A DNA stretch of 64,000 nucleotides from a virus (taxonomy: Duplodnaviria; Caudoviricetes). Where the stretch lies: IMG/VR virus record IMGVR_UViG_3300010340_000989, positions 64,001-128,000 of that record; one strand, given 5' to 3'. Shown one piece after another: positions 1 through 60,572 of this stretch; the first letter of the stretch is position 1, and the number at the start of each line of letters is the position of its first letter. The translations under genes and the position numbers were made by a program. A model generated the notes under the pieces. That model made no database searches and was not told the origin of the DNA. It saw only the letters and a list, made by a program, of their open reading frames with translations.

Positions 1-45
1 TTTTGATTCTAAAATAATTTGATTGAATGATTTAATATATTTCAT
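1..45 (-). CDS. 5' end of a gene running off the window (MKYIKSFNQIILESK...), carrying the N-terminal leader motif
   Basis: Hand translation from ATG at 45; TAATATATA motif upstream at 65-73. Confidence 0.7.
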   Translation of the reverse strand, partial: MKYIKSFNQIILESK

Positions 46-83
46 ATAAATTTGATTTTTATTATATATATTAACCTAATTAT

Positions 84-242
84 TTAATAATGTGAAATAT
101 TTGTTTCTTTAGAAACCACCCAAGATATTTCAGAATTTGTTATCTTAGCTGAGATAAATTCTGAAACATTTGATTCATCCTTTGAACAAGAATTAAATAA
201 GCACATCATTAGTGCCATCATCATAATTTTAATTGTTTTCAT
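84..242 (-). CDS. small putative lipoprotein (52 aa), below the ORF-track cutoff
   Basis: Hand translation MKTIKIMMMALMMCLFNSC-SKDES...; signal peptide with lipobox-like FNSC. Confidence 0.5.
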   Translation of the reverse strand: MKTIKIMMMALMMCLFNSCSKDESNVSEFISAKITNSEISWVVSKETNISHY

Positions 243-256
243 AATTTATTTTTTAA

Positions 257-496
257 TTACCAAACAATATAACCACCAAAATCACCATATAGACAAAGGT
301 TATTTTTAAGTGTATCAAATTCTGTCTTTTTTAGAAAAACTACTTTTACATTATCAGAACAATTATTCTCCAAATTTACACTAAAATTAACAGAGTCTCT
401 TGTTAAGACACTACCACAATTACAAGGTTCTTGTTCTTTATTACAAGATGATAAAATCAAAGCAATAAAGAACATAAAAAGATATTTTTTTTTCAT
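257..496 (-). CDS. small Cys-rich lipoprotein
   Basis: MKKK, hydrophobic stretch and LSSC lipobox; four further Cys. Confidence 0.7.
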   Translation of the reverse strand: MKKKYLFMFFIALILSSCNKEQEPCNCGSVLTRDSVNFSVNLENNCSDNVKVVFLKKTEFDTLKNNLCLYGDFGGYIVW

Positions 497-518
497 TTTT
501 AGTTTTAAAAGTTAAATA

Positions 519-566
519 CAAATGTAGATAATAAATATGAAAATACCAAATTTATTATCTACATTT
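519..566 (-). promoter_or_regulatory. Bacteroidota-type promoter (TTTG-N20-TACATTTG) overlapped by a 17-bp perfect inverted repeat
   Basis: caaatgta 519-526 and caaa 547-550 on +; arms aaatgtagataataaat 520-536 and atttattatctacattt 550-566. Confidence 0.6.
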
Positions 567-598
567 ATTATTAACCCTATCCAGAATTAAATATCTTC

Positions 599-4787: not shown

Positions 4788-4863
4788 CGAATTACAAATA
4801 TAAGGATTTTTTATTCCAAAAAAAAATATGATATGGAACTAACTTGATTACAATATATAATAT

Positions 4864-6707: not shown

Positions 6708-7547
6708 ATGTTTTTGAAAAAATTTGAAAATTTTGATAACAATTTTTGTGTATATATTTTTTTAAACCCATCTAAACCAGGTGAGTATAAATATGACGAA
6801 TATAAATTTGATTTTGAACCAATATACGTTGGAAAAGGTAGGAGTAATAGGCCAAAAAATCATATTTATAAATTTAAAAATGGTAGAACATATTTTTATA
6901 AAAAATTGATCAATTTGGTTGGCTCTGGATATGATCCTTTATGGATAATTATTAGAAATAATTTAACCGAAAAAGAGGCATTCGATGAAGAAATTAGATT
7001 AATTAAATTAATAGGTAGAAAAAATACAGGAGGTAGTTTATCAAATCTAACAGATGGTGGTGAAGGTCAAACAGGATATAAACATAGAGAAGAGAGTAAA
7101 TTAAAAACATCAAATAGTCTAAAATCCAATACTGAGTGGGTTAATAAAATGAAATCAAAAGAACATAGAGATAAACTAAGCAAATCTTTAATGGGACATG
7201 AGGGATATGGAAAAGGAATCGCGAGAAGTCAAGATGTGAAAGATAAAATAAGACTAAGTGTATCTGGTGATAAGAATCACTTTTTTGGAAAAACACACAC
7301 CGATGAATTAAAAAATAAACTTTCAATAAAAAATACCGGAAAAAATAATCCTAATTCTAAATTATATAGAATAGAACATAATGGTGAGATATTAACATTT
7401 GAAGGTAGATTGGAACTAAAAGAATATTTAAATAAATTTAATATTGATAATAATTTAAAGGGCCCTAATAGGGTTAGCTTTGATAATTTAATCAATCGTG
7501 GATACTCAAAAGATTTTAAACTATTATCTATTGATAAATTAAATTAA
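6708..7547 (+). mobile_element. free-standing GIY-YIG-like/NUMOD3 homing endonuclease, paralog of 4864..5748
   Basis: FDFEPIYVGKG..RP, LSNLTDGGEG, NHFFGKTH. Confidence 0.85.
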
Positions 7548-14623: not shown

Positions 14624-14872
14624 TTATTTTTCTGTCATTTCTATAAGTTCTAAAATTCTATCCTTATCTAATTCACACTGTTTAGCAGTTTTTATAATAA
14701 TTTCTTTACCACTTTCTGTTGATAAAAGTTTTTCAAAATTATCTTTATCTGAAATTAATTTAGATAAAGTCCAAAAAGCACCTAATTTATTTCTAAGCTT
14801 ATCCTGTACAGACTCTGTGGAAAAGTCATTATCGTGTTCGTTTTCTATCGATTCTGTAAATTTCTTAATCAT
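14624..14872 (-). CDS. hypothetical protein with N-terminal leader
   Basis: MIKKFTES. Confidence 0.6.
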   Translation of the reverse strand: MIKKFTESIENEHDNDFSTESVQDKLRNKLGAFWTLSKLISDKDNFEKLLSTESGKEIIIKTAKQCELDKDRILELIEMTEK

Positions 14873-16062
14873 AACATTTGTTTAAATTTTTCTATTTCCA
14901 ATCTCTTGATTTCATCACCTAAAGCTTTATTTTTTTTAAAACCTTTAGATATCAAATCTTCGGAAGATACACTAGGAATATAGTCAATAAATCTAATAAA
15001 AATCTTATCATGAACTCCACAAGTATCCAACCAATCAATAATTTGATCAACTTCACAATGACATCTTACTTTTTTCTTATATAAATCAAGAGCATTCTCT
15101 GGTGTTAATTTTAACAAATCTAATAGAAATACAACTTTAGGAGCAGTATCATACTTATCCGCAATTTTATATGATTGTACCATTTTAGTCTTAAGATTTT
15201 TAGTATCTTCAAACTTAAATAAGTTAGCAATATATGATGTTAATTTATGAGCCTCTTCAATATTAGTATTGATTTTAGAACCTGGAAATACTTGTTCCCA
15301 CATATCAAATTCATTAAAAAATTCAAGATATTGTTTGTAGGATTTAGCTTGTTTAAAAGCTTTCAACATTTCTTCCCATATTCTTTCTTGAGAAACATCA
15401 TCTTTCGGACCAATTCCTTTAAGTCGATTATCTTTTTTAATAGCATCAGCTGTTTTATCTTCAATTTTACCACCTGTTCTAGCAGCAAATCTAAAAACTC
15501 TTAAAATTCTAAGTCTATCTTCAATAAATCTTTGACTAGCGTCACCAACAGCTCTAATTATACCATTTTTGATATCATCAACACCACCTACTAAATCAAT
15601 AATTTGTTTCTTTTTAATATCATAGAACAAAGCATTAATAGTTAAGTCTCTTCTATTACAATCATCTTCTATTGTAACATTATCTCCCATTTCCACTTTC
15701 TGATCATCACCTTTTGTATCTCTTCCACCTGAGATATCCTTTCTATATGACGCAATCTCATATCCAGTTGGTTCATCTTTGGTAAAAACCCTCAATACTC
15801 CAAAGTTTTTACCTTGTTCATCAGATACATTAAACCCCTTCAATATCTCTTTAGATTCGTTTGGTAAGGCATTTGTCACTAAATCATAATCTTTAGGAGA
15901 AATTCCTTTCACAAAATCTCTAACAGCACCACCTACTAAGAAAATATCTTTACCAGCCTTTATATAAGCATTAGATATTTCTATAATATCATTTGGTAAA
16001 GGAATATCAGTAGATATTCTATTTTTAAGGCTTTCACAGAAGAGTTTGTATCTAGTTATCAT
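14869..16062 (-). CDS. cca: class II tRNA nucleotidyltransferase (CCA-adding/poly(A) polymerase family)
   Basis: VGGAVRD...DYD, RRDLTINAL, RFIEDRLRILR..RFAAR, SQERIWEE; ATG start at 16062 gives MITRYKLFCES. Confidence 0.9.
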   Translation of the reverse strand: MITRYKLFCESLKNRISTDIPLPNDIIEISNAYIKAGKDIFLVGGAVRDFVKGISPKDYDLVTNALPNESKEILKGFNVSDEQGKNFGVLRVFTKDEPTGYEIASYRKDISGGRDTKGDDQKVEMGDNVTIEDDCNRRDLTINALFYDIKKKQIIDLVGGVDDIKNGIIRAVGDASQRFIEDRLRILRVFRFAARTGGKIEDKTADAIKKDNRLKGIGPKDDVSQERIWEEMLKAFKQAKSYKQYLEFFNEFDMWEQVFPGSKINTNIEEAHKLTSYIANLFKFEDTKNLKTKMVQSYKIADKYDTAPKVVFLLDLLKLTPENALDLYKKKVRCHCEVDQIIDWLDTCGVHDKIFIRFIDYIPSVSSEDLISKGFKKNKALGDEIKRLEIEKFKQML

Positions 16063-16081: not shown

Positions 16082-16867
16082 TTAACGAATCAATATATGA
16101 GATGCTGGAATTTTTCTCAAATCAGTAACTATACGATCCTGACTAATTCCGTAATCACTGTATATTTCTAATCCTTGAATAATTTCTTTTTCAACTAACT
16201 CATATAGATTTGAATTATCAGTTGAAGACTTATTCAAATCTGAATTCTCATCAAAAATATCCATAAATATTTTCTTCAATTGCTGTCTAGTTTTCATACC
16301 TGAAATTTGAACCTCGGCTACCGAATCATCATAACTATCTAGTTGGATTTTTGAGAAACTGGTTTTACCATTGACCACGGTATAATCGACGCTAAACCAA
16401 AATCCCCAGAAAAATCCGTTATAAAAATCTAAATCTTCAAAATTATCTGAAATATTTTTGATATCATCTTCACTAGTCGGGATCAACCCAACAGAGAATC
16501 GTATTGAAATTGTCCTATTATCTTGTTCTTCATCATGCCAGAATTCCTGCAAATCTGTAAATTCTGGACATATTTCTAAGTAAAACTCAACATTTCCACC
16601 TCTATATGAGTCTTCAGAACCAGGTGAATAGAGATCAAATCTAAATGTTCCAAATTTAGAATATTTATCTACTTTTCTTTTCCATTTATCCATCGATTCT
16701 CTCATTTCCATATCACCAGCATGAGATTTTAATTTATCAGCTCTTTCGGCAGCATTAATACTTCTAGCTAATCTTGGATCATCTTTTACTATTTTTTGTA
16801 GTTTTCTAGAGGCTCTCATATATGTTGAAGAGTTGAGTTCTTCGTTAAATCTTTTTAAATGTTTCAT
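16082..16867 (-). CDS. hypothetical protein with N-terminal leader (putative internal virion protein)
   Basis: MKHLKRFNEEL; N-terminus similar to 16883..17680. Confidence 0.75.
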   Translation of the reverse strand: MKHLKRFNEELNSSTYMRASRKLQKIVKDDPRLARSINAAERADKLKSHAGDMEMRESMDKWKRKVDKYSKFGTFRFDLYSPGSEDSYRGGNVEFYLEICPEFTDLQEFWHDEEQDNRTISIRFSVGLIPTSEDDIKNISDNFEDLDFYNGFFWGFWFSVDYTVVNGKTSFSKIQLDSYDDSVAEVQISGMKTRQQLKKIFMDIFDENSDLNKSSTDNSNLYELVEKEIIQGLEIYSDYGISQDRIVTDLRKIPASHILIR

Positions 16868-16882: not shown

Positions 16883-17680
16883 TTAGTGGGAAATCCTTTT
16901 GAAGGCTTCTTTAGGATCTTCATTATATAATTTATTAGTATTAATATTTTTAAATTCATCTAATATCATCTCTACATCTGATATTTCAATTGTAGATATT
17001 ATATTAGGAAGAATTTCAAACATAGCTTCTGAATTAGTCATATATTTATCATCGTCTTCATTTTTATATCCAGTATAAACTTTTATTTCATTAGTTAATA
17101 CTTTTCTAAGAATATTTCTAAAATTATTAGCAGATTTTCTATCACTAAACATAGTGCCAAGCTCACCATAAGTAAAAATCGTTATCGGAGAAACTCTATC
17201 TATATTACCATTCTCATTTAGATTAAAATGTGTATGTAATTCCATTGGCCAAAACTTATAAGAACTAAGTTCGCATTCATCTTTAAATAAATCTATATAT
17301 TCTGGTTTAATTTTAGATAACTCTGATTCATTTATTTCAAACGAAATAGTAATAGATACTGGTAAAATATTAGTACTTTTATGATATTCAATATCATCTT
17401 TTAACAAATCCAGATTAAGTTCAATCTTGTTAAGTTTAGCTTTTATTGGAGTATCAGAAATAATGCCACTTGTTATTCCTTTTCTTGATGTTGCTGTTGC
17501 TGGGTAAGAAGTCATCCATTTAATCCAAATATTGAATTCACCAACATCACCAAGCTTACCTTTCTTAGCCCAGTCAATTAGTTTTTGTCCCCTTTCAAGA
17601 TGTCCTACCTTTTTAAGATTATCACCAGCATTTATATAAGTTTCTATATTAAGTTCTTCAAATTTTTTTAAGTGCCTCAT
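16883..17680 (-). CDS. hypothetical protein with N-terminal leader
   Basis: MRHLKKFEELN..TY..A...L. Confidence 0.75.
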   Translation of the reverse strand: MRHLKKFEELNIETYINAGDNLKKVGHLERGQKLIDWAKKGKLGDVGEFNIWIKWMTSYPATATSRKGITSGIISDTPIKAKLNKIELNLDLLKDDIEYHKSTNILPVSITISFEINESELSKIKPEYIDLFKDECELSSYKFWPMELHTHFNLNENGNIDRVSPITIFTYGELGTMFSDRKSANNFRNILRKVLTNEIKVYTGYKNEDDDKYMTNSEAMFEILPNIISTIEISDVEMILDEFKNINTNKLYNEDPKEAFKRISH

Positions 17681-17696: not shown

Positions 17697-17714
17697 TTTT
17701 AATATATATTAAAA
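17697..17714. promoter_or_regulatory. 18-bp perfect palindrome carrying TAATATATA on both strands; candidate bidirectional late promoter
   Basis: ttttaatatatattaaaa between divergent leader-bearing operons. Confidence 0.55.
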
Positions 17715-17953
17715 TGAGATACTTGAAATTTTTTGAAGCATTTAAATATAAAAACTTTACTCTACAAGACATAATAGATTGTATTCAAAGTAAAGGATTT
17801 ATTTATGCAACTATTATTAATAATTTACCTGATAATGATCCAGATATGGCAATTAACCCAATGAGTGTAGATGATGACGGTTTAATTACGGTTGAAATTG
17901 ATGGAAAAGAATATGAAGTTGAATTAAAAAATGTTGAAAAAATAGAATTTTAA
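17714..17953 (+). CDS. hypothetical protein with N-terminal leader
   Basis: MRYLKFFEA. Confidence 0.7.
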   Translation: MRYLKFFEAFKYKNFTLQDIIDCIQSKGFIYATIINNLPDNDPDMAINPMSVDDDGLITVEIDGKEYEVELKNVEKIEF

Positions 17954-18429
17954 TGATTAAAAGTTGGGAATTGTTTTTAGAATCAAATAACAGGGATCAA
18001 GAAATACTTGATAATATTAGGGATATTCTTATATCTCTTAAAGTAGATCATTCTATTAGAGTTTTAATAAGAAGCTATGTAGAAGAGTTTGGTAAAGTTA
18101 TGGTTTCTTTTATAATAGAAGGAAAAATTGGAATAGAAGAAGTTCAAACTATATTACACTTGGATAGTTATTTAAAAAGCGAAGAGTTTGATCCTAAGGC
18201 AAAATCTAATAAGATAAATGAATTAGATGTTGTTGTTCAAAGAAAAAGTGGGAAACTTGATCAGTATTCTATTAGCAAATTGCTAACAATGCTAAACGGT
18301 GTAAATAAAGATGTTATTGACTTGACTAGAATTGAGTTTCAATACTATCTACCAGATTATCTTAGATATTATAATGATAAAAACGGAAATATTTTTAAAA
18401 TTGGAGATTTGATTATTTATTTACATTGA
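17953..18429 (+). CDS. paralog-family protein with N-terminal leader
   Basis: MIKSWELFLES-NNRDQEILDNIRDIL; near-duplicate of 18470. Confidence 0.75.
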   Translation: MIKSWELFLESNNRDQEILDNIRDILISLKVDHSIRVLIRSYVEEFGKVMVSFIIEGKIGIEEVQTILHLDSYLKSEEFDPKAKSNKINELDVVVQRKSGKLDQYSISKLLTMLNGVNKDVIDLTRIEFQYYLPDYLRYYNDKNGNIFKIGDLIIYLH

Positions 18430-18469
18430 GAACTATATTAAAAAATAGCAAGCAAACAATAACTGAATT

Positions 18470-18994
18470 ATGATTAAGGACTGGAAATTATTTTTAGAAT
18501 CAAATAACAGAGATCAAGAAATACTTGATAATATTAGGGATATTTTGTTGTCCTTAAATGATAGTTGTGACCTTATAAGAGTCTATATACCATCTTTTAT
18601 AGAAGAATTTGGCAGAGTTAAGGTTCATTTTATAATAGAAGGTAAAATAGGAATAGAAGAAATTCAAGTAATAAAACATTTAAATTCATATTTAGAAAGT
18701 GAAGAATTTAAATGTTCAATACCTAGAAGAGGAACAGATAATAGATTTAACCAGGCAGACTGGTTTAAAGAATTGAATGTTATTGTTCAAAGAAGAGAAG
18801 GTGGTGTATATAAATATTCTCTTAATGAAATAATAAGATTATTAAATATGGAAAATTCCATATTTAATAAAAAACCAGTATATAATTTAGTAAGAATTGA
18901 TTTTGCGTACTATGTACCAGATTATCTTAATGATGGAAATATTTTCCAAATTGGACAAGGAAAAGATTTAATAAGAAATAATATATATGGTTAA
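18470..18994 (+). CDS. paralog-family protein with N-terminal leader
   Basis: MIKDWKLFLES-NNRDQEILDNIRDIL. Confidence 0.75.
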   Translation: MIKDWKLFLESNNRDQEILDNIRDILLSLNDSCDLIRVYIPSFIEEFGRVKVHFIIEGKIGIEEIQVIKHLNSYLESEEFKCSIPRRGTDNRFNQADWFKELNVIVQRREGGVYKYSLNEIIRLLNMENSIFNKKPVYNLVRIDFAYYVPDYLNDGNIFQIGQGKDLIRNNIYG

Positions 18995-19475
18995 GAACTG
19001 GAAGTTATTTTTAGAAGCATTCGATCCATTCGAAGGAGATCCATTTAGAGAAGAAATTCTAAATAATGTTAATGATATATTATCTGGATTAAAAGATAAT
19101 GGATTTTATATTGATATCGTCTATGGATTTTCTTTCACTATAAATAATAAACTCTTAATTAACATAAAAGGTAAGGAATTTCCGTTTAGACCGGATGGTA
19201 TTGAATCATTATTTATATCATCAGATGATTTTCAATCAATAATACACTTAAACAACTATTTAATAAGTGAGGAGTTTGAACCTATTTCAAATAATATACT
19301 TAAAGAATTAGATATTAAATTTAACACATTTAAATCGGACAATCTAAACTCTGAAATGAAGAGAATGTCTTATCCAATTAGTAGATTGGAATATTCTTTA
19401 AAGAAAAATGGTATGAAAATTAATTTCATATATTTTGAATACATCCTACCAAAATTTGCTAAATTATTCAGATAA
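18987..19475 (+). CDS. paralog-family protein with N-terminal leader
   Basis: MVKNWKLFLEA; EILNNVNDIL; HLNNYLISEEF. Confidence 0.75.
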   Translation: MVKNWKLFLEAFDPFEGDPFREEILNNVNDILSGLKDNGFYIDIVYGFSFTINNKLLINIKGKEFPFRPDGIESLFISSDDFQSIIHLNNYLISEEFEPISNNILKELDIKFNTFKSDNLNSEMKRMSYPISRLEYSLKKNGMKINFIYFEYILPKFAKLFR

Positions 19476-23591: not shown

Positions 23592-23609
23592 TTTCTTTTA
23601 TTATTTTTA

Positions 23610-35501: not shown

Positions 35502-35749
35502 TGAATCATAAGCAAAGAGAAATATTAGAAGAACAAGATTATTGGGTCTGGGATTTTGACTATGAAAATGAGAGTAATTTTGATTATCACATGGATTATT
35601 ATATATCATACGATAGATTAGAAAATGGATTGGTCGACTGGTCAGAAGAAATACCACAATCAGTTAAAAGACAACATAAAATCGATCAAATACTAAATGA
35701 AGATTTAGAAGATACTGATAATAATTTAGGAAAATTCTGGCCTAAATAA
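35501..35749 (+). CDS. acidic hypothetical protein with near-C-terminal tag
   Basis: RQHKIDQIL. Confidence 0.65.
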   Translation: MNHKQREILEEQDYWVWDFDYENESNFDYHMDYYISYDRLENGLVDWSEEIPQSVKRQHKIDQILNEDLEDTDNNLGKFWPK

Positions 35750-42370: not shown

Positions 42371-42940
42371 ATGAAAGTAATTAAATTTATTGATTTTATA
42401 AACGAGAATTTACACGACACACCAGAGGAATATATTAAAATTGCTCTAAGTAAATTAAAAAAGAAAATTGAATCTTTTTTTGAGGTTGCTAAACCAGAAG
42501 GTGAAGAAGAGGAAAAGTTTATAACTATGAGTGATGCCTTGAAAAAAGGAAAAGAAGAAGAAAAGAAAAAATCTGAAATATCTTTTGCAGAGTTAGGTTT
42601 AAAGTTAGAAAGCTCAGAATTAAGTAAATATTCATCTTTAAATGATAGTATTAAATTTATAATGTCTGATGAAGATTTTAGATATGATTTAACAATTATA
42701 ATTCCATTAGATGAGGCAAAAGTAACAGACACTGATAAAGATTTTACAGACACTGATATTAAAAAATGTTATATTAAATTTAAAAAATATGACATGAAAA
42801 ATAATGTTGAATTAATTGGTCAAATTAATAAAAATGTGGAAATAAGTTCAATAGATGAAAATCTTTTAATTGATCTTAAAATTCAATTAGATGATGAATA
42901 TGGTGATGGTGATGAAAAATTAGAAATAGAAACTGAATAG
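42371..42940 (+). CDS. acidic hypothetical protein with N-terminal leader
   Basis: MKVIKFIDFINE; TAATATATA at 42358-42366. Confidence 0.75.
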   Translation: MKVIKFIDFINENLHDTPEEYIKIALSKLKKKIESFFEVAKPEGEEEEKFITMSDALKKGKEEEKKKSEISFAELGLKLESSELSKYSSLNDSIKFIMSDEDFRYDLTIIIPLDEAKVTDTDKDFTDTDIKKCYIKFKKYDMKNNVELIGQINKNVEISSIDENLLIDLKIQLDDEYGDGDEKLEIETE

Positions 42941-43783: not shown

Positions 43784-44425
43784 ATGAAAAAGATAACAGA
43801 AGAATTATTAAAAGACGCATTTATTGATTTGATTGATAATGGATGGCTTTTAAGGCTTAATAAAACCATTTATGTTGTTCATAAAGATGGGAATGGTGAA
43901 TCCGGAAATACAATCTCACAAGCTTTGAAAAGTTTTACAAATACTAATAAAGCGGAAGAAGCAAAATGTAATAAATTAATTACAATATCTATCAATAAAC
44001 CTAATAATGATATTTTAAATTTTAGAGAATATAAAGAATTTCAACAAGATTTTTTAGGATCGTTATCTAGCTTCTGTGATGAAATTGAAGTTGATGAAGA
44101 TAAAGTCACTGTCGAAAATGGATTTGGAAGCGAACAAACAATTACAATTATTCAAGATGAATTTAATATTAAAAATATTGTAAAATTTACTAATATTTGT
44201 AGAATATTTAATATTAAATTTAATGGTAAAATTTCTATCGGATTATATGATGATGGTATTAAATTAAATATGCCTAGTGATGTAAAAGGAATAGCAACAA
44301 ACGGATGGTATCAGTTTAAAAGAGAAGCATTGGAAATGATTAGTAAAGATTTTGATATAATTGAAAAAGATTTTTCCTTATATTTGCATCCAAAATTTGA
44401 ATTCATAGAAAATGAAAATATTTAA
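43784..44425 (+). CDS. hypothetical protein, DIL.DL.D family-like
   Basis: LLKDAFIDLIDNGW; TAATATATA at 43770-43778. Confidence 0.7.
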   Translation: MKKITEELLKDAFIDLIDNGWLLRLNKTIYVVHKDGNGESGNTISQALKSFTNTNKAEEAKCNKLITISINKPNNDILNFREYKEFQQDFLGSLSSFCDEIEVDEDKVTVENGFGSEQTITIIQDEFNIKNIVKFTNICRIFNIKFNGKISIGLYDDGIKLNMPSDVKGIATNGWYQFKREALEMISKDFDIIEKDFSLYLHPKFEFIENENI

Positions 44426-45674
44426 CTACTTACAATTTATCACAGAATCTAACGATTTATCAACACATTATCTTCCATCTTATGAAGATTGTTTGGAAAT
44501 GTGCACAAAAGAAGAATCTGCTTTCTATGAGTCAAAATTTACTATTGATGGTTATAACATCTCAGTATTTAACTATCGTCTCGCTCAATATAAAGACTTT
44601 GTAACACCTTTAGAAAATAGACCAGAAGTCAAAGCATACGAAATGAGAGGATTGACATTTGTATTTAATGAAGATGGTTCATTATTTAAGAGATTTTTAT
44701 TGCTTGAAAAGTTTTTCAACATTAATCAAGTTCCAGAATCCATGTATTCTATTGTCAAGGATTACAAAATTAAATTTGTCAATAATAAAGAAGATGGCTC
44801 TATTGCTTCTTATATAAAATTACCCAATGGTAAAATATTAGGTAAATCCAAAATGGGATTTGATAACGAACAAGCCAATGGTATAAATAGAATTTATAGA
44901 ACTAGAAAAGATATAAAAATATTTGTTGATTGGTGTTTGGATAATGATATTACATCTATTTTTGAGTATGTATCACCAGCAAATCGTATTGTTCTAAGAT
45001 ATTTAGAAGAAGATCTTATTCTTTTAAGAATGAGAGATAATAGAACTGGTAAACACCTAAACATCAAAGACTATTTAGATAAAATTGATACTATCAGAAT
45101 CGCACCATTTGAAGATGATAACAAAGATTTAGACTCTTTGGTGGAAGTTATTGCTAAAGAAGTTGATAAAGAAGGCGTTATTGTTCAAACAGAAGATAAA
45201 TATGGTAGAGACTTTTTCTTTAAAATTAAAACTCCTTGGTACTGTGAACGTCACGGTCTATTGACTAATGATATTTATAGAGAACATATCATAATTGGTT
45301 ATATCTTAGATGATAAAATTGATGATATTCTTGGACAAATACCAGAAGATGAAAAAGAAGCACACTTGAGAATAAATAAAATTATTCAAATTGTTAAAAA
45401 AGTAATTGATGAAAAAGTTGCTGATATTAAAAAATCATATCAAGTTTATCTAGATATGGGTTCTAATAATAAAGAATATTCTTTGAAGTATTATAGAAAA
45501 GAGCCAAACTTTTCTTATGTAATGGGTGTTGCTAAAGGTATGGATATTTACGAATTGGCTAAAGATTGGCTAAGAGATAATACTAAAAGATTAATGTTAG
45601 CTAGAGATTTTTTAAAGAAAAAAGATCCAAGTCTTTTCTTCCAAGAACCAAATGAGGAAAATTTAGATTCATAA
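44412..45674 (+). CDS. RNA ligase, T4 Rnl1 family
   Basis: FNY, EMRGLTF, EKFFN, motif I KEDGS, FEYVSP.NRIV..Y, EGVIV, KIKT.WY..RH. Confidence 0.9.
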   Translation: MKIFNYLQFITESNDLSTHYLPSYEDCLEMCTKEESAFYESKFTIDGYNISVFNYRLAQYKDFVTPLENRPEVKAYEMRGLTFVFNEDGSLFKRFLLLEKFFNINQVPESMYSIVKDYKIKFVNNKEDGSIASYIKLPNGKILGKSKMGFDNEQANGINRIYRTRKDIKIFVDWCLDNDITSIFEYVSPANRIVLRYLEEDLILLRMRDNRTGKHLNIKDYLDKIDTIRIAPFEDDNKDLDSLVEVIAKEVDKEGVIVQTEDKYGRDFFFKIKTPWYCERHGLLTNDIYREHIIIGYILDDKIDDILGQIPEDEKEAHLRINKIIQIVKKVIDEKVADIKKSYQVYLDMGSNNKEYSLKYYRKEPNFSYVMGVAKGMDIYELAKDWLRDNTKRLMLARDFLKKKDPSLFFQEPNEENLDS

Positions 45675-47721: not shown

Positions 47722-48972
47722 TTATTCATCGTAAGGATCAATCTCATCATACCCTCCACCAGTACTCTGAAGTTCATAATTGGCTTTAATTGCACTACCT
47801 TTATTGGATAATTCACCAGTTTCAGAATTTAAATACATTAATGAATCTAAATATGGAAATTCATCTTCCCATTTTTGTAAATCAACTATAATAGTTTGAT
47901 TATTTTTTGTATCCGATCCGTTTTCAATTGTAAAATCTGATCCATAATTTTTAGATTTTCTATACCACCATCCATTTTTTTCTGCAAATTTTCGGAATAA
48001 ATCAATATCATTATCTTTAGTTGTATAAATTCTATCCATAAAATAATAATCATCTCTTGTTTTCCAAAGTAATGCTCTTCCAACTATTTTATTTGATGTG
48101 TATTTACCGTTTAAAATCTCACCATTTTCATCATATAATATAACTAATTGACAAACATCTGGATTAGCAGAATATATGTATAAATAACTACCAGGAACTT
48201 CCGACATACAAGAATTTGCTAAAGTGCCATTGTCCTGATCATAATAATTATCTAAATTATACCAATAAGTTATATCATCACCTTTAACAATATTAAATCT
48301 ATTAAAAGAATCATTTATAATATCAATTGTAGATTTATATTGATTTACAAATTTCTCAATATCAGAATCATTAGCATTAATTTTAGTTGCCCTAATAAGA
48401 GCTCTAATTATTCTTCCTATTTTTATTTTATTCCTATTAGTAGTCCAAACTTTTTGAAAAGAAGAATCATACTCTTCAAGAGCTTCCTTATTAATAATAG
48501 TTCTTTTTCCTTTATCTTCTTCTTCCCCATGGATCGATAGAGTACATTCGAATAAACAGTATATCTTACCACTTGAACCTACTGTTGTCCCAAGTATTTT
48601 ACCAACTGTTCCAAATTCGGGTTGATAGACATCCTGAGTTCTTGTATGATTTAAATTATCATATATTCTTTGATTTCTTTCAGATCCTGTTAAATATCTT
48701 CCACTATCAATAACTTTATATAATTCTTCTTTGTCACCTATCAACTCTTTAGCTTTTCTATCAGGTATAAAACTAACAGTATCATTTTCATCAGTTGTAT
48801 CAATATAATTATATTGAGTATCAATATCTACATCTTGTAAAGACATAATTTGGTTAGAAAGAGGGGATTTTATAGAACTCAATGCACTATAAAATCTTTT
48901 AGAAAATCCAATTTTAGATTCAAATAGTTTTTCTAATTTTTTTTCTAATAAAAAATCAAAATAATTAAACAT
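47722..48972 (-). CDS. phage hypothetical protein with N-terminal leader
   Basis: MFNYFDFLLE; GTLANSCM, GRALLW, MDRIYT, FPYLDS. Confidence 0.75.
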   Translation of the reverse strand: MFNYFDFLLEKKLEKLFESKIGFSKRFYSALSSIKSPLSNQIMSLQDVDIDTQYNYIDTTDENDTVSFIPDRKAKELIGDKEELYKVIDSGRYLTGSERNQRIYDNLNHTRTQDVYQPEFGTVGKILGTTVGSSGKIYCLFECTLSIHGEEEDKGKRTIINKEALEEYDSSFQKVWTTNRNKIKIGRIIRALIRATKINANDSDIEKFVNQYKSTIDIINDSFNRFNIVKGDDITYWYNLDNYYDQDNGTLANSCMSEVPGSYLYIYSANPDVCQLVILYDENGEILNGKYTSNKIVGRALLWKTRDDYYFMDRIYTTKDNDIDLFRKFAEKNGWWYRKSKNYGSDFTIENGSDTKNNQTIIVDLQKWEDEFPYLDSLMYLNSETGELSNKGSAIKANYELQSTGGGYDEIDPYDE

Positions 48973-49020
48973 ATTGATAAATAATATTTATTCTTATATA
49001 TAAAATATAAGAATTAACAT

Positions 49021-51955: not shown

Positions 51956-51980
51956 ACAAAAAAATAGTATATTTGTAATT

Positions 51981-55741: not shown

Positions 55742-56140
55742 ATGATATATTTAAAATTATTTGAAAATTTTAGTAGGCATAAAGATTGGAAAAATCCTGA
55801 TGAAAATGATAGAATATTTGAAATTATATTTATGTCTTTTTTAGATATTTCTGATAAATATAATTTTGAAAAAGTTGATGATGTTTATAAATCGGATATT
55901 AATGGGACTATTTATCAAATAAAATACTCAACAAAACGAGAAGAATATAATTTAGAAATATTTCTAATAGATAATTTAGAAGGTGTATCTGATGATGGTA
56001 GAAATCTAAAAAAAGATCTTTTATCTGATTTTAATAAATTTATTTCACATTTAGAATCATTCGGTTTAAAATGTATTATGAATAGAGAAAGAGGTAGTTT
56101 AATAATTGATTTTTACATCTCTAAAAACTCTAATATATAA
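55742..56140 (+). CDS. hypothetical protein with N-terminal leader
   Basis: MIYLKLFENF. Confidence 0.72.
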   Translation: MIYLKLFENFSRHKDWKNPDENDRIFEIIFMSFLDISDKYNFEKVDDVYKSDINGTIYQIKYSTKREEYNLEIFLIDNLEGVSDDGRNLKKDLLSDFNKFISHLESFGLKCIMNRERGSLIIDFYISKNSNI

Positions 56141-56143
56141 CTT

Positions 56144-57022
56144 ATGAAACATATTAAACCATATAAATTATTTGAATCTTCAAATAGATTTGTTGAAGAG
56201 ATTGGTATAACATTAGATCAAGTTCAAGATATTTTCATAGATGTTAAAGATTCTGGATTAGAAGTTGATGATATTTATATAGGAAATGCTTTATCATTAG
56301 GAAATAATGAAATAGTAACAGATCATAATGATTTAGTATTTATTGACTCATATAGAAGTTTTTCAATTAGATTAAAATCTACCAATCGTCATAATTTTCA
56401 TATAGAAAATGATTTATTTGATGAATTAAAATCATCAATTGGACATATTGAGTCTGAATTTAATTTACAATTAGGTAATATTTACCTAAGAACATTTGAT
56501 GGAGTTTGGTTTAATAATGTAGATACGATGGAAAAGTATATTAATGAATTACCATTTGCTAAAAAAGTATCTTTAAAATGGATTAGTTATTTGGATTTAA
56601 CTTTTAAAATTAAAGCGAATTCAAATGAATATTTAACAGAAAAATATAAAAATCAATATTCTTTACTGAAATCAATATTAAATGATGTTAAAGATATACT
56701 TATTGATTTAACGGATGATAATGATTATTTAAGTTATAATATTGATTTTAATGAGTATTATAAAATTAAGGGAACTGAACTTGGCCAGGCGATGTATGCA
56801 GATTCAATTGATATTCATTTACTAAATGAAGAAGATATATTTTATATCTTTAATGAAGATATTCTACCTACTTTAAAAAAGTTAGAATCATTTTTGAAAC
56901 AATATGATTTAAATATTGATATTGAATTGGTAAATAAAGATATAACTTATTCATTAGATGATTTTGTTAATGAGCATGGTGATAAAAAATCTAATGAATT
57001 AATAATAATAATTATATACTAA
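56144..57022 (+). CDS. two-domain DIL.DL.D family protein with N-terminal leader
   Basis: MKHIKPYKLFES; QDIFIDVKD and KDILIDLTDD. Confidence 0.75.
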   Translation: MKHIKPYKLFESSNRFVEEIGITLDQVQDIFIDVKDSGLEVDDIYIGNALSLGNNEIVTDHNDLVFIDSYRSFSIRLKSTNRHNFHIENDLFDELKSSIGHIESEFNLQLGNIYLRTFDGVWFNNVDTMEKYINELPFAKKVSLKWISYLDLTFKIKANSNEYLTEKYKNQYSLLKSILNDVKDILIDLTDDNDYLSYNIDFNEYYKIKGTELGQAMYADSIDIHLLNEEDIFYIFNEDILPTLKKLESFLKQYDLNIDIELVNKDITYSLDDFVNEHGDKKSNELIIIIIY

Positions 57023-57036
57023 AAATAAATATAACT

Positions 57037-57387
57037 ATGAGAATAAAAAAATTTGAAAATTTTAGTCAAGAAGAGGAATATGATGGATTAAATTCATCAC
57101 AAGAAGAAGAGCTTTTTGAAATATTTAATGAGTGGGTAGATAAAAAATATCCGGATTTATCAAAAGAAGATTTGATAGAGAAATTTACACCAGGCACTGA
57201 TGAGTTTGTAGAGTTTTTATCAGAATTAGAAAATGAAACAGATTGGTTTGATTATACTCAAATTGATAAAATATATCAAGAAATATCTATATATATAAAT
57301 GATTTATATGAGGATGATACTGAATGGGATGATACTGAGTATGAAGATGGTGAAAACGATGATGATGGTGAAAACGATGAAGATTAA
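57037..57387 (+). CDS. very acidic protein with N-terminal leader
   Basis: MRIKKFENF; D/E-rich tail. Confidence 0.72.
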   Translation: MRIKKFENFSQEEEYDGLNSSQEEELFEIFNEWVDKKYPDLSKEDLIEKFTPGTDEFVEFLSELENETDWFDYTQIDKIYQEISIYINDLYEDDTEWDDTEYEDGENDDDGENDED

Positions 57388-57395
57388 TAATTATT

Positions 57396-57785
57396 ATGAA
57401 ATATTTAAAAAGATTTGAAAGTGTAATTGATGATAATATCATTTCATCTTTAAAGGATATCTTTAAAGATTTAAGTGATGATATTTTTGATGTTTATATT
57501 GAATATAAAACTTTTTTTGGTGAAAAAAAACCATTTTTAACCATATCTATTTATAAAAATTCTTCTGGTAAGGAAAATGCACCAGCAGAAGATATTTATT
57601 TATATGAAATAAAAGATTATATTAAAAGATCAATCGAATATCTAAGATCTGAGGGACTTGAACTCTCTACTGTGATTCCATATGGTAGTAGAAATTCCTT
57701 TATAGGAAGACGTGAGGAGGATGTAGAAAATTGGAATCCAGATGATATAGTAATGGCAATGAATGTATATTTTAAAGAAATATGA
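57396..57785 (+). CDS. paralog-family protein with N-terminal leader
   Basis: MKYLKRFES; LKDIFKDLSDD; EIKDYIKR.I.YL. Confidence 0.75.
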   Translation: MKYLKRFESVIDDNIISSLKDIFKDLSDDIFDVYIEYKTFFGEKKPFLTISIYKNSSGKENAPAEDIYLYEIKDYIKRSIEYLRSEGLELSTVIPYGSRNSFIGRREEDVENWNPDDIVMAMNVYFKEI

Positions 57786-58171
57786 AATATTTAAAAAGAT
57801 TTGAGAATTTAAAAGAAGATAATTCAGAAATACTATCTGATTTAAAAGATATTTTATCTGATTTAACAGATGATGATTTTGATATAGAAATTATTGATAA
57901 AGAAAAAAGAAAAAACCAGAGTGGTGATTGGGATAATATCCGTATTCGTTTTATTAAGATAAATGGTAGATACTGTACTGAATTTGAATTATCCGAAATA
58001 AAGGATTATGTTAAAAGAATCATTGTTTATATGAGAAATAATGATTTTAAACTTAAGTATATTTATGCTTTTAAACAGCAGAACATGTCCAAAGATTTTA
58101 ATCTAACAATTGATATTGATCAATGGGACTTAAATATGAAAGTTTTCGGTATTAATTTTTACTTCGATTAA
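57782..58171 (+). CDS. paralog-family protein with N-terminal leader
   Basis: MKYLKRFEN; EDNSEILSDLKDILSDL. Confidence 0.75.
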   Translation: MKYLKRFENLKEDNSEILSDLKDILSDLTDDDFDIEIIDKEKRKNQSGDWDNIRIRFIKINGRYCTEFELSEIKDYVKRIIVYMRNNDFKLKYIYAFKQQNMSKDFNLTIDIDQWDLNMKVFGINFYFD

Positions 58172-58185
58172 ATAATAAATAGTTT

Positions 58186-58593
58186 ATGAAATATTTAAAA
58201 AGATTTGAGAAGTTAGAAGATAATTCAGAAATATTATCTGATTTACAGGATATTTTATCTGATTTAAAAGATGAATATTTTGACATTTCTATTTTACCAG
58301 GAACTTGGAAGAACAATTATTGTATTATGATTGGATTTCTAAAAGATACAACAGGTGGAGTAGCTAAGGAATTTAAATTATCTGAAATAAAAGAATATAT
58401 TGATAGATTAATAGAATATCTTCAATCTAATGGATATTATATTGAAGATATTGACGCTTTTGACTTATCCAAAAGTCTTAAATTTCCGGGTGATAAAGGA
58501 TCAAACTTTGATTGTGTGGGTGCTTGGCCATGTATAAATGAGTGGGATTTAGATACTAAGGTTATTGGTATCAATTTTTATTTTAATAATTAA
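58186..58593 (+). CDS. paralog-family protein with N-terminal leader
   Basis: MKYLKRFEK; EDNSEILSDLQDILSDL; shared GINFYF end. Confidence 0.75.
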   Translation: MKYLKRFEKLEDNSEILSDLQDILSDLKDEYFDISILPGTWKNNYCIMIGFLKDTTGGVAKEFKLSEIKEYIDRLIEYLQSNGYYIEDIDAFDLSKSLKFPGDKGSNFDCVGAWPCINEWDLDTKVIGINFYFNN

Positions 58594-58603
58594 TATATAA
58601 ATT

Positions 58604-59104
58604 ATGAAACATTTAAAATCATTTAAACAGATATCAGAAGCAATTCGACCAGGATACATAAGTCAGAAGTCATTAGATAGAAACACAAAACCACCTAAAT
58701 TTATAGGAGATATTAAACAACCTGTTGAAATAAGAATTGATGTTGAAGCTGTTGGTCATGCTCTTTCTAGACAATATAGACATGGTGTGACTGATACTGA
58801 TGGTAAAATTGAAGCTGGAATATCAAAAGATGAGATATTAGATACTATTGAGGCATCAGTTGAGGAAATAACAATTGCTCTTATGCAAGATAAATTTGAT
58901 ATCTATCAAAATGAGGATGATTATCCTACTCGTGGTGTTAGAGAAGGAGAACCAAATAGATTTGTTATTCGTAAAAAAAGTAATAATTTAAATATTGTTT
59001 GTCAATTAGAACCAGGTGATAATGAATTCACATTAACTGTTATTACGGTTATGAAAAAAGAGGATTTTAAACCATATAGAGGTCAATTTGTATTGGAAGT
59101 ATGA
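58604..59104 (+). CDS. hypothetical protein with N-terminal leader; possible RelE/BrnT-like RNase fold
   Basis: MKHLKSFKQISE; HALSRQYR...I...EI...VITV. Confidence 0.55.
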   Translation: MKHLKSFKQISEAIRPGYISQKSLDRNTKPPKFIGDIKQPVEIRIDVEAVGHALSRQYRHGVTDTDGKIEAGISKDEILDTIEASVEEITIALMQDKFDIYQNEDDYPTRGVREGEPNRFVIRKKSNNLNIVCQLEPGDNEFTLTVITVMKKEDFKPYRGQFVLEV

Positions 59105-59892
59105 AGCATTTAAAAAGATATAATTCAGTAAATGAAAACTCTGTAAGATTGGCAGCTGATATTTTTTTTAGTGGAAAGGATGGTGATTGGATGTCTGGAA
59201 TAAATGAACCATTTTTAATAAAAGAATGTAGTATTATATTTCCAGATTCTACAATCATGGTCTTCAACGTTCTAAAAGAAGACTTTGACTCTGAATTTTT
59301 GAATTTAAAAATTTCACCTAAACAGGACTATACTAATATAAATTCTGTATTCTATCTATCGATTTATGGTGATAATATTCAATTTGAAAGTTTAAATGAA
59401 TATAAATTTGTCAGAAAATATCTTACAAAAGCTGACATATTAGAACACACGTTTGATGCATATATCTATTCTGACAACCATAATGGTGCATTCGAAATAA
59501 AATTAAATATTCTTTCACCGATTGATATAGGTTCAATGATAATGAGACCAGGGATAATTGGATTTCATAATAATTTAATGAAATCCAATACTAAAACATT
59601 TGTTGAAAAAAATAAAAATTGGAAATCCGATATTACAAATTTCTTTGATGATTATACAAAAATTCAAGCTCTATATAGTATGATTGAAAATAAAATAGAT
59701 TCTGAATCTATTTTTGAAATTAAACCATGTGATATTAAAATAATAGATAATTTAACAATAGATGGTGCATTATATCTTAAAAATATACTTAGTGGAATAA
59801 AAAATATTGAAATTTTAAAAGAAATTTTAAGAGATTGCAACTCAAATATTGAATCAAATAAATATTTAAAATTAATTGAAGAATTTTTATGA
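59101..59892 (+). CDS. hypothetical protein with N-terminal leader
   Basis: MKHLKRYNSVNE. Confidence 0.72.
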   Translation: MKHLKRYNSVNENSVRLAADIFFSGKDGDWMSGINEPFLIKECSIIFPDSTIMVFNVLKEDFDSEFLNLKISPKQDYTNINSVFYLSIYGDNIQFESLNEYKFVRKYLTKADILEHTFDAYIYSDNHNGAFEIKLNILSPIDIGSMIMRPGIIGFHNNLMKSNTKTFVEKNKNWKSDITNFFDDYTKIQALYSMIENKIDSESIFEIKPCDIKIIDNLTIDGALYLKNILSGIKNIEILKEILRDCNSNIESNKYLKLIEEFL

Positions 59893-60572
59893 AACACTTA
59901 AAAAGATTTAATCTAATTAAAGAGTCACATTCTCAAGAAAATGACGTGGATATTATTATTGATTCTGTGCAAGATTTTTTAGATGATGATAGAAATATAT
60001 TATTTAAATCATCAATTGATGATATGACACATCAAGACTATATTGATAAGAATTCAAACTATTTAGGGTTTAAACCAATTGTAAATACTGGAAGTTTGAT
60101 TAGAGGTCATTTTATTATGGTATTTCGAGATATAAAAGATTATTCAGATTTCTTATTAATTAATAACCAAATGCAATCAGTTTTTGGTAGATTAAAAGAT
60201 GAAGATTGGACAATGTATGATATGAAACTTAGAACTTCTCCTCCACTAAATAATCAAGGTGATGCTAGATTCATATACTTAGCTTTTTATTTTTCAAAAC
60301 CTGATCAGAAATTAGATGAAAAATTTAAATGGCCAGATGAAAAAGATTTGAAAGAAATTTTTGAAAAATATGGATTAATTAATCTATATTTTGATTATTA
60401 TAAACCTTCTCGTTCAGACGGTCCAGTTGAAGTAACAATAGAATTTGATTCTACAAGCTACGATGGTAAAGTTACTGAAAACGCTGAAGAGCTTTTTGAA
60501 TTAGTTTGTAATAGATTTGGATTTAGTAGTTATAATTATAGTTTTGGTGATTATAGAGTGACTTTGGTTTAA
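59889..60572 (+). CDS. hypothetical protein with N-terminal leader
   Basis: MKHLKRFNLIKE. Confidence 0.72.
   Translation: MKHLKRFNLIKESHSQENDVDIIIDSVQDFLDDDRNILFKSSIDDMTHQDYIDKNSNYLGFKPIVNTGSLIRGHFIMVFRDIKDYSDFLLINNQMQSVFGRLKDEDWTMYDMKLRTSPPLNNQGDARFIYLAFYFSKPDQKLDEKFKWPDEKDLKEIFEKYGLINLYFDYYKPSRSDGPVEVTIEFDSTSYDGKVTENAEELFELVCNRFGFSSYNYSFGDYRVTLV

Follow-up and report, generated by a model that had tools for sequence, protein, structure and literature searches.

A portable N-terminal leader on many proteins of a huge Bacteroidota phage: a candidate T4-like capsid targeting sequence

Many genes in this stretch of phage DNA begin with a similar short peptide, which raises the question of whether the peptide is a real tag and, if so, what reads it. 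The DNA comes from a huge uncultured Bacteroidota phage, and about one quarter of the genes in the window (the whole stretch of 64,000 nucleotides analysed here) start in this way. The leader takes the form M-[KR]-x-[LIVY]-[KRQ]-x-[FY]-(0-5 residues)-E and is 8-13 residues long. The original prediction listed 23 such N-termini and proposed that they form a capsid-targeting system resembling that of T4, with cleavage behind the Glu. All 23 are encoded where it placed them and all have the leader (Table 1). The S, N or A that it described after the Glu is seen in 18 of the 23.

Counts and portability of the leader

We searched the record that contains the window (164,996 bp, 246 ORFs) with a strict regular expression, ^M{1,2}[KR].[LIVY][KRQ].[FY].{0,5}E. 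It matches 21 of the 246 ORF starts compared to none of 865 internal Met positions, which bears out the enrichment at gene starts that the original prediction had proposed to look for. Across the same record, 1 of 1815 other open ATGs matches, and with residues 2-31 shuffled the matches average 0.08 and never exceed 2. A looser expression finds 49 ORFs at a background of about 5 %, which points to roughly 35-38 true carriers, about 15 % of the ORFs in the record. The leader and the C-terminal tag of this phage exclude each other as predicted, since none of the 23 curated carriers is tagged and only two weak matches to the looser expression are (Fisher p = 0.007). For the two tags combined, the estimate of about 40 genes is approximately correct, with 23 leader genes and 10 C-terminal-tag genes (by regular expression) among about 100 ORFs.

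Table 1. Leader-bearing genes and associated motifs in the window
Feature	Position	Strand	Remarks
94-aa leader gene, first 15 codons	1..45	(-)	gene body left of window; 13-residue leader ends I-L-E before S
TAATATATA motif	65-73		near 94-aa leader gene at 1..45
GIY-YIG/NUMOD3 homing endonuclease with leader	6708..7547	(+)	Pfam PF22945 from residue 15, PF07460
82-aa leader ORF	14624..14872	(-)	no known family; leader retained in G001 orthologue
CCA-adding tRNA nucleotidyltransferase with leader	14869..16062	(-)	PF01743, phrog_2244; enzyme domain from about residue 38; alternative start possible (upstream TTG at 16077)
261-aa leader protein	16082..16867	(-)	founder of family A3
265-aa leader protein	16883..17680	(-)	TAATATATA at 17703-17711
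79-aa leader ORF	17714..17953	(+)	TAATATATA at 17700-17708
Three paralogous leader genes	17953-18429, 18470-18994, 18987-19475 (span 17953..19475)	(+)	W at leader position 5; leaders end F-L-E before S or A
Doubtful member, 573 aa	24121..25842	(-)	short leader-like run at start; G001 orthologue (713 aa) ends in C-terminal tag
522-aa leader protein	35742..37310	(-)	phrog_1462 (function unknown); TAATATATA at 37315-37323
189-aa leader ORF	42371..42940	(+)	TAATATATA at 42358-42366
T4-type RNA ligase 1 with leader	44412..45674	(+)	PF09511, phrog_562; 14-residue leader extension ends I-T-E before S
416-aa leader protein	47722..48972	(-)	TTATATATA at 48995-49003
Nine consecutive leader genes (array)	55742..60572	(+)	all acidic
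Array genes 1-5	55742-56140, 56144-57022, 57037-57387, 57396-57785, 57782-58171	(+)
Array genes 6-9	58186-58593, 58604-59104, 59101-59892, 59889-60572	(+)
TAATATATA motifs in or near the array	55729-55737, 56131-56139, 58591-58599

Most carriers are non-paralogous and have no similarity past the leader, and some families mix members with and without it. By alignment, the leader of RNA ligase 1 is an extension relative to the leaderless orthologue in the relative G009. The leader of the GIY-YIG endonuclease is likewise an N-terminal extension, and paralogues elsewhere in the record lack it. The CCA-adding enzyme has an orthologue with a different leader of the same pattern in the relative G001 and a leaderless one in G009. 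A paralogue of the 416-aa protein (record position 22833-24146) and a distant homologue of the 522-aa protein in a T4-like cyanophage are leaderless too. Sharing beyond the leader does occur: an N-terminal module of about 45 residues is common to the 265-aa protein, A3 and a 157-aa gene that in relatives adjoins the portal gene, just upstream. Six of the nine array genes have no homologue in G001 (74 % identical), where other leader genes occupy their place; array content turns over between close relatives with the leader retained. This resembles T-even internal proteins, which are diverse and have the targeting sequence alone in common (PMC3012670). The leader is a real, portable protein-level tag.

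Synonymous codons of the leader vary at the genome-wide rate in the record. The relative G008 (37 % GC) encodes the leader Glu8 22 times by GAA and 21 times by GAG and uses four codons for Leu6, and G001 orthologues hold the pattern across amino-acid substitutions. In family A3 (28 sequences, down to 25 % identity) the leader is the most conserved part, with M1, F7, N8, E9, E10 and L11 invariant. An AlphaFold2 model of the 261-aa founder, for which no PDB fold match was found, has a mean pLDDT of 87.6, but residues 1-10 average 52; the A3 leader is outside the predicted fold. These comparisons indicate that the leader is selected at the protein level.

Relatives, head genes and promoter class

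We searched for the leader DNA pattern in IMG/VR and in cellular genomes amounting to 596 Gb. In IMG/VR it occurs in more than 119 stretches and, among the matches listed, 87 of 94 start ORFs of at least 45 aa. For comparison, the cellular genomes yield 115 pattern stretches in all, and just 21 of 80 matches start ORFs. The tag is thus essentially absent from cellular genomes and specific to a phage clade. Within that clade more than 50 carriers are found in G008, and the tag is widespread among phages related to the published "Mahaphage" genomes of 635-735 kb. One published genome, LR756502.1 (642 kb), has 74 pattern matches compared to 8 for a reversed control pattern; the leader stands on about 70 of its genes, arrays of about 40 included, and the promoter motif and C-terminal tag recur there too. 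PTm1, a distant relative in culture, has no leader, and the searchable literature yielded no account of the leader.

If the leader addresses a capsid, the phage should encode the corresponding head genes. Neither a protease nor a scaffold nor a capsid protein was found in the record, which covers about half a genome, while in a control the same search recovered the S77 (gp21-type) protease family in a T4-like cyanophage. A portal, an S77-type protease-scaffold fusion and a gp23-type capsid protein do occur together in G008 and G009 (both complete), G016, L209 and LR756502.1. Of these, L209 is the nearest head-bearing relative, with 63-75 % identity in shared genes. Any link to a capsid targeting sequence (CTS) therefore rests on the relatives. 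The original prediction had proposed to locate a gp21-like protease and compare its sites; the protease is missing from the record but present in relatives, where the candidate sites read Y-[LI]-A-E and I-N-E before N.

Tetrads Y-[LIV]-A-E followed by [NH] recur 12-15 times in the scaffold portion of the fusion at 78 of 80 head loci; the 14-residue repeat unit ends Y-[LI]-A-E. S-I-N-E followed by N is present in the capsid protein at 56 of 62 loci. The 189-aa ORF of the window has a leader ending I-N-E before N, the conserved capsid-protein site of the clade. The motif [FYW][LIV]xE stands within the first 16 residues of 34 of 107 leader proteins in G008 (11 of 648 others) and of 18 of 43 in G009 (4 of 294 others). 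In these two genomes the match of leader ends to the L/I-x-E motif is clear. Many leader ends look like the clade's own scaffold and capsid-protein sites. The enrichment of cleavage-like motifs at N-termini is just 2-4.5 fold.

Leader genes also keep company with head genes. Leader-bearing genes immediately precede the portal gene at no fewer than 13 head loci, and they do so in LR756502.1 as well. Upstream of the capsid-protein gene a AATATATA-type motif is present at 62 of 78 loci; for the protease-scaffold gene the count is 71 of 74. In the record the same type of motif heads the inferred transcription unit of 18 of the 21 strict leader genes compared to 2 of 38 C-terminal-tag genes (p = 3e-11); for other genes the figure is 74 of 161. 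This promoter motif suggests that leader genes, unlike C-terminal-tag genes, belong to the transcription class of head genes.

The cargo is of a different kind from that of T4. The pI is below 6 in 19 of the 21 strict carriers compared to 70 of 161 other proteins (p = 4e-5), and the median for the mature parts of strict carriers is 4.6. These acidic proteins do not share the class trait of T4 internal proteins, which are small, highly basic and DNA-associated. Cargo of the record includes RNA ligase 1, the CCA-adding enzyme and the homing endonuclease, all normally regarded as cytoplasmic, and to our knowledge the number of carriers is far above any experimentally shown capsid cargo. Both the cytoplasmic-type enzymes and the huge carrier number count against the CTS reading.

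What the leader may do

We consider it moderately probable that the leader is a greatly expanded T4-like CTS. The capsid-targeting part of the original prediction is favoured by the modular nature of the tag, by positions 4 and 7, by the closing Glu, by the head module in relatives and by the promoter class. It is weakened by the acidic cargo and by the strict L/I/V-x-E end, seen in only 9 of the 23 window leaders. Two residues before the Glu the 23 leaders have L/I/V (9), F (8) or K/R (6, as K/R-F-E), so that a cut after the Glu is doubtful for those with F or K/R. Injected internal proteins are likewise one of several possible fates, since the cargo is acidic.

Under the capsid-targeting reading, leader proteins would be made late, alongside the head proteins. 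Their first seven or so residues, with a hydrophobic residue at 4, an aromatic one at 7 and Lys/Arg flanks, would dock each protein onto the prohead scaffold core. Once the shell has closed, a T4-type prohead protease would cut behind a Glu preceded two positions earlier by a hydrophobic residue, in the same way as it would process the scaffold repeats and the capsid protein, and the payload would remain in the head. By analogy it may then be injected with the DNA, like T4 internal proteins and Alt, or act as filler of the core, to be degraded and expelled. We tentatively put forward a bolder hypothesis, which we think has a limited chance of being right: the tag may mimic one unit of the phage's own scaffold repeat (aromatic-[IL]-x-E), with dozens to about 100 fast-turnover cargoes co-assembled into the prohead, clipped by the scaffold protease and injected with the DNA. 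In that case the phage studied here would carry among its cargo a ready-made tRNA/RNA repair kit (RNA ligase 1 and the CCA-adding enzyme) that could counter anticodon-nuclease defences ahead of any phage gene expression.

Alternatively the leader may be a docking tag for some non-capsid late reader (an assembly chaperone, a timed protease or a subcellular site) and its T4 likeness convergent, both signals being simply short amphipathic N-terminal helices. Conservation outside the predicted fold does argue for an external partner and leaves its identity unspecified; acidic cargo with cytoplasmic-type enzymes, and the 6 of 23 leaders lacking a hydrophobic residue two before the Glu, would suit such a reader. 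We nevertheless judge it unlikely. The record does encode candidate readers (DnaK, DnaJ, a ClpB-like ATPase, and a radical-SAM enzyme with a partner protein), but G008 and G009, complete and rich in leaders, lack them all, while both have the T4-type head module; leader ends agree with the scaffold and capsid-protein sites, and leader genes sit within head operons. The same radical-SAM enzyme would be the candidate if the leader were a RiPP-like recognition sequence for a modifying enzyme. At record position 154966-157266 its gene runs convergently with four leader genes, a layout repeated in G001. The dozens of leaders in G008 and G009, where this enzyme and its Cys-tailed partner both lack homologues, and a leader without Cys or other obvious target residue make that idea extremely improbable.

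Inheritance from one ancestral protein, with the leader an N-terminal helix for folding or oligomerisation and no sorting role, would account for the small paralogous families, the tandem arrays and the 45-residue module of three proteins. It is hard to reconcile with the absence of similarity past the leader in most carriers, or with a leader appended to RNA ligase 1, CCA-adding and GIY-YIG enzymes whose orthologues or paralogues are leaderless; with these three, unrelated folds behind the leader are largely seen already. As the AlphaFold2 model also places the leader outside the fold, we consider this origin improbable. One could also regard the peptide as incidental to a nucleic-acid or translation feature, an A-rich unstructured start on leaderless late mRNAs. 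A promoter-like motif ends 4-5 nt upstream of the ATG in several leader genes, whose mRNAs may thus be leaderless, and Lys (AAA) is frequent at codon 2. What is kept, even at 37 % GC, is the amino acids and not the codons, and conservation falls on hydrophobic and aromatic residues and on Glu rather than on A-rich codons. Many carriers lack a promoter of their own, being internal to operons, and AT-rich cellular genomes lack the pattern at gene starts, so we hold this explanation to be very improbable.

Comparison with known systems

We presume that LR745206 and LR756501-LR756504 are the Mahaphage-type huge Bacteroidota phages of Al-Shayeb et al. 2020. These records are unannotated; capsid proteins from the 635-kb and 642-kb genomes share 71-72 % identity with that of L209.

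Loading of many proteins is known from phiKZ-like giants, whose heads take up dozens of proteins that are processed after Glu by a T4-related protease (PMC5694885, PMC9026906). In phiKZ, 201phi2-1 and SPN3US a diverged gp21 homologue cuts the propeptides of ejection and inner-body proteins at S/A-x-E. Those phages are a separate lineage with other hosts, and their propeptides are mostly longer than 100 residues, share no common short tag and have a small residue, not a hydrophobic one, two before the Glu.

The first difference from T4 is scale. T4 has a handful of tagged proteins, whereas 23 genes carry the leader within these 64 kb, and relatives have more than 50 per genome. The leader is often longer, reaching 13 residues in the full G008 form M-K-H-I-K-L-F-E-x-F-[LI]-N-E, and part of the set lacks L/I-x-E, the gp21 cleavage motif (PMC9026906). 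Protease and scaffold are fused in the clade, with 12-15 repeats of 14 residues. Its payload is acidic and contains RNA-repair-type enzymes; the internal proteins of T4, by contrast, are described as highly basic (PMC8442874).

The likeness to T4 is nonetheless broad. The T4 CTS, MKTYQEFIAE (PMC8442874), is likewise a short N-terminal peptide on unrelated proteins (IPI, IPII, IPIII and Alt), removed by gp21. In T4, residues 4 and 7 contribute most to targeting, as mapped in IPIII, and residues 8 and 10 to processing (PMC9026906); logos of five genomes have L/I/V/Y at leader position 4 and F/Y at 7. Both peptides start with Met-Lys, have hydrophobic or aromatic residues at 4 and 7 and close with a Glu, often after I/L/V-x, and one carrier just outside the window is identical to the T4 signal at 8 of 10 residues. 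The clade has a T4-type portal, an S77-type protease, a scaffold and a gp23-type capsid protein and, as in T4, its payload sets vary among relatives with the tag alone in common.

The leader and its carriers

All 23 N-terminal leaders named in the original prediction are present in the sequence, and the motif is enriched at protein starts. We defined a strict form as M-[KR]-x-[LIVY]-[KRQ]-x-[FY] with a Glu within the next 6 residues. Across the whole record this form is found at 21 of 246 ORF starts, compared to 0 of 865 internal Met and 1 of 1815 other open ATGs, and shuffling residues 2-31 yields a mean of 0.08 matches (maximum 2). A loose pattern matches 49 ORFs of the record against a background of about 5 %, which corresponds to roughly 35-38 carriers. 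As had been noticed, S, N or A usually follows the Glu (18 of 23 leaders). The leader had also been described as exclusive of the C-terminal tag carried by other genes of the phage, and indeed none of the 23 carriers has both; the two overlaps seen in all are weak matches to the loose pattern (Fisher p = 0.007). A 573-aa protein (window 24121-25842, minus strand) begins with a short leader-like run, and its orthologue in the relative G001 (80165-82306) has 713 aa and the C-terminal tag at an end that the window copy lacks. This makes the 573-aa protein the sole two-tag candidate. Outside the window, at G000:C1:47935-48041, we also observed a short open frame (about 35 codons) that begins with a perfect leader and directly precedes two leader genes; it may be a remnant or a mini-gene.

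One explanation for the motif is chance resulting from AT-richness. We rejected it on the basis of the internal-Met, off-frame and shuffle controls, a relative with 37 % GC and a cellular-genome control. A degenerate 24-base pattern of the leader start was searched in IMG/VR and in 596 Gb of cellular genomes. We found at least 119 stretches in IMG/VR, where 87 of the 94 matches examined begin ORFs of at least 45 aa, nearly always at the first ATG after a stop. The cellular genomes contain 115 stretches in total, with only 21 of 80 matches being ORF starts. A shorter pattern, counted per genome against its reversed control, occurs 74 times in the 642-kb genome LR756502.1 (control 8), 3 times in the cultured Tenacibaculum phage PTm1 (control 2) and twice in a T4-like cyanophage (control 2). 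Between 10 and 37 kb, LR756502.1 (stretch L391, positions 8000-38000) has an array of about 40 leader genes with C-terminal-tag genes interspersed; its leaders mostly open with M-K-H-L-K-x-Y and close with N-E or [IL]-F-E, followed by S.

Judged from the sequences, the leader is best described as a portable peptide, neither the trace of shared ancestry nor a DNA feature. All-against-all BLAST groups the carriers into only a few small families, several of which mix members with and without the leader. Proteins behind the leader include enzymes (see table). The RNA ligase 1 aligns with the leaderless orthologue of the distant relative G009 except for an N-terminal extension of exactly 14 residues, and the CCA-adding enzyme of G009 also has no leader. 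Synonymous variation in the leader codons of the record matches genome-wide usage. The complete 482-kb relative G008 (37 % GC) has 52 strict leaders in which the amino acids are kept and codon choice is free (Glu8 is encoded 22 times by GAA and 21 times by GAG, Leu6 by four codons), and the G001 orthologues keep the pattern despite changes at individual residues.

The 261-aa carrier at window 16082-16867 (minus strand) has 28 homologues falling to 25 % identity, whose bodies vary whereas the leader residues M1, F7, N8, E9, E10 and L11 never do. Its AlphaFold2 model has a mean pLDDT of 87.6, with residues 1-10 at about 52 and outside the fold. A leader that is strongly conserved and yet has no structural role inside the modelled protein points to an outside partner. 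The carrier had no usable match in the ESM Atlas, and Foldseek of the confident model against the PDB returned no match.

Identity of the phage and its relatives

The window covers bases 64001-128000 of the 164,996-bp IMG/VR record, which is about 52 % complete (CheckV) with a GC content of about 27 %. A huge Bacteroidota phage is indicated by several features, namely Bacteroidota-type signal peptides, TAnnTTTG promoter boxes directly before start codons, collagen-like tail fibres, a gp32-type SSB, RNA ligase 1 and GIY-YIG endonucleases. Between the record and G001, ordinary genes have about 78 % identity (overall range about 74-90 %), and 29 proteins are common to the record and G009, among them a syntenic block that runs from SSB to late genes. 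When 12 kb of the window was compared with GenBank phages by megablast, a dnaK fragment was the sole match. Ribosomal protein S21 was not found in the record and four relatives, which places the phage outside the published bS21 group.

An alignment scan with the capsid protein recovered at least 522 related contigs. Among the best 80, L209 is closest to the record, with two shared proteins at 75 % and 63 % identity, and has a full head module. As the nearest relative with head genes, it was used for comparison of the capsid protein, which shows 71-72 % identity to those of LR745206 (635 kb) and LR756502, both unannotated 'uncultured phage' genomes, and 54 % to that of a 735-kb genome. We take these three genomes to be members of the Mahaphage group of Al-Shayeb et al. 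2020.

Coordinates of leader carriers, chaperone-type genes, promoter motifs and protease-scaffold genes (L-numbers are DNA stretches or contigs)
Feature	Position	Strand or context
T4-type RNA ligase 1 behind leader	window 44412-45674	
CCA-adding enzyme behind leader	window 14869-16062	minus
GIY-YIG/NUMOD3 endonuclease behind leader	window 6708-7547	
Leader proteins with acidic tails	window 57037-57387, 42371-42940, 47722-48972; L006:9527-9838	
DnaK	window 45818-47683	
DnaJ	window 50921-51955	
704-aa ClpA/ClpB-like AAA+ protein	L006:3615-5729	minus
TAATATATA-type motif	window 37315-37323, 42358-42366, 55729-55737, 56131-56139, 58591-58599, 17700-17711	
TAATATATA-type motif	L195-L273	upstream of capsid-protein and protease genes
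TAnnTTTG boxes (examples)	window 4788-4810, 28084-28105, 34630-34648, 51956-51980	upstream of minus- and plus-strand operons
ATATGA overlaps	L001:6171-7834 and similar operons	minus
Fused protease-scaffold (G009)	L155:10797-13091	
Fused protease-scaffold (G008)	L172:8283-10385	minus
Fused protease-scaffold	L209:7848-9935	
Fused protease-scaffold	L389:9821-11920	

Head module and promoter classes

The original prediction called for a gp21-like protease and for its cleavage sites in capsid and scaffold proteins. The protease and candidate sites were located in relatives. In the record, protease, scaffold and capsid protein were not found, and PF03420 and PF07068 gave nothing beyond one 18-bit chance-level match; the same search method recovered the protease family from a T4-like cyanophage. 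Three leader-rich relatives, the complete G008 and G009 as well as G016, have a cluster of gp4-like head closure, gp2-like end protector, portal, head maturation protease and gp23-type capsid protein. At 78 of 80 loci the protease forms one protein with a scaffold of 14-residue tandem repeats (consensus N-L-D-K-x-I-x-Y-S-E-Y-[LI]-A-E) containing 12-15 Y-[LIV]-A-E tetrads followed by N or H, with a very acidic stretch after the repeats. The capsid protein has S-I-N-E followed by N near residue 45 at 56 of 62 loci. These tetrads and this site both agree with the T4 gp21 cleavage rule, L/I-x-E (PMC9026906). In LR756502.1 and in at least 13 head loci, the gene immediately upstream of the portal gene is a leader-bearing one of 157 aa, and LR756502.1 has a second leader-bearing gene beside it. 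The first 45 or so residues of the 157-aa protein are common to window genes 16082-16867 and 16883-17680. Separately, Asp/Glu-rich tails close several leader proteins and recall the acidic stretch behind the scaffold repeats.

In the clade, a AATATATA-type motif occurs in the 60 nt upstream of the capsid-protein gene at 62 of 78 loci, and likewise ahead of the protease-scaffold gene at 71 of 74; it is also found ahead of tail fibre genes of the record and ahead of several homing endonuclease genes. It resembles the T4 late promoter TATAAATA. The conserved TAATATATA-type motif, with the same counts at capsid-protein and protease-scaffold genes, is probably the late or head-gene promoter of the whole clade. 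In the record the gap between its end and the ATG is often only 4-5 nt, suggesting that the mRNAs are leaderless. Units were inferred by allocating every gene to whichever motif comes first upstream of it within the run of genes on the same strand. Units headed by the AATATATA-type motif hold 18 of 21 strict leader genes, compared to 2 of 38 C-terminal-tag genes (p = 3e-11) and 74 of 161 other genes (p = 8e-4). Bacteroidota-type TAnnTTTG boxes, 9-15 nt before start codons, head long operons of small C-terminal-tag genes and most genes of that kind (23 of 38), so that the two tags are split by promoter class. In many C-terminal-tag genes the product ends in L-G-I, and the final codons, ATA TGA, overlap the ATG of the gene that follows (ATATGA). 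This tag variant is thus in part explained by a start/stop overlap, a sign of translational coupling.

Comparison with the T4 capsid targeting sequence

The signal of T4 internal proteins is MKTYQEFIAE (PMC8442874), where residues 4 and 7 matter most for targeting and residues 8 and 10 serve processing (PMC9026906). In the leaders of five genomes, position 4 is conserved as hydrophobic and position 7 as aromatic, and the full G008 leader reads M-K-H-I-K-L-F-E-x-F-[LI]-N-E. Agreement with the T4 signal is 6 of 10 residues for three genes immediately left of the window and 8 of 10 for the gene at L005:2814-3353. In the first 16 residues, [FYW][LIV]xE occurs in 34 of 107 leader proteins compared to 11 of 648 others in G008, 18 of 43 compared to 4 of 294 in G009, and 9 of 49 compared to 5 of 197 in the record. 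Two residues before the Glu, the 23 window leaders have L/I/V in 9 cases, F in 8 and K/R in 6. By sequence, the window leaders appear to fit the canonical cut site partially, part of them being without one.

The proposal of capsid targeting and cleavage is partly supported, by the likeness to T4, the head module of relatives and the promoter class, with cleavage being doubtful for part of the leaders, and it is limited by head genes being known from relatives and not from the record. The leader could instead be read by another factor. The record encodes its own DnaK, DnaJ and ClpA/ClpB-like protein (phrog_4871, E = 9e-250), as well as a radical-SAM enzyme and its partner. Since all of these are missing from the complete relatives G008 and G009, they are improbable readers of the tag, and we rejected them. 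On balance we lean towards the leader being, in Mahaphage-type Bacteroidota phages, a variant of the T4 capsid targeting sequence that has expanded greatly. We found no published description of the leader; literature searches with leader strings, and with capsid targeting and metagenomes, gave nothing relevant.

If true, the largest known phages would give 10-15 % of their genes to capsid cargo under one short tag, which would explain part of the purpose of huge genomes and capsids. A simple sequence rule would then serve to list anti-defence candidates and candidate injected effectors across hundreds of uncultured genomes, and the leader-tagged RNA ligase and CCA-adding enzyme would amount to a counter-defence of a new, pre-packaged kind. 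With this leader and the separate C-terminal tag of early genes, the phage would sort its proteins by two codes, each bound to a transcription class. The leader would also be a natural targeting peptide to load foreign proteins into Bacteroidota phage capsids; the T4 signal already serves to load foreign proteins into capsids in E. coli.

The payload differs from that of T4. Strict carriers are acidic (median pI 4.6; pI below 6 in 19 of 21 compared to 70 of 161 other proteins) whereas T4 internal proteins are basic (PMC8442874). Instead of DNA-bound internal proteins, the carriers could therefore be DNA-mimic-like effectors, or core filler destined for expulsion. Of the nine genes arrayed at window 55742-60572, six have no homologue in G001, where other leader genes occupy that place. 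T-even internal proteins are likewise diverse, with the targeting sequence as their sole common part (PMC3012670), and the turnover of the array parallels theirs in having a variable payload behind a kept tag.
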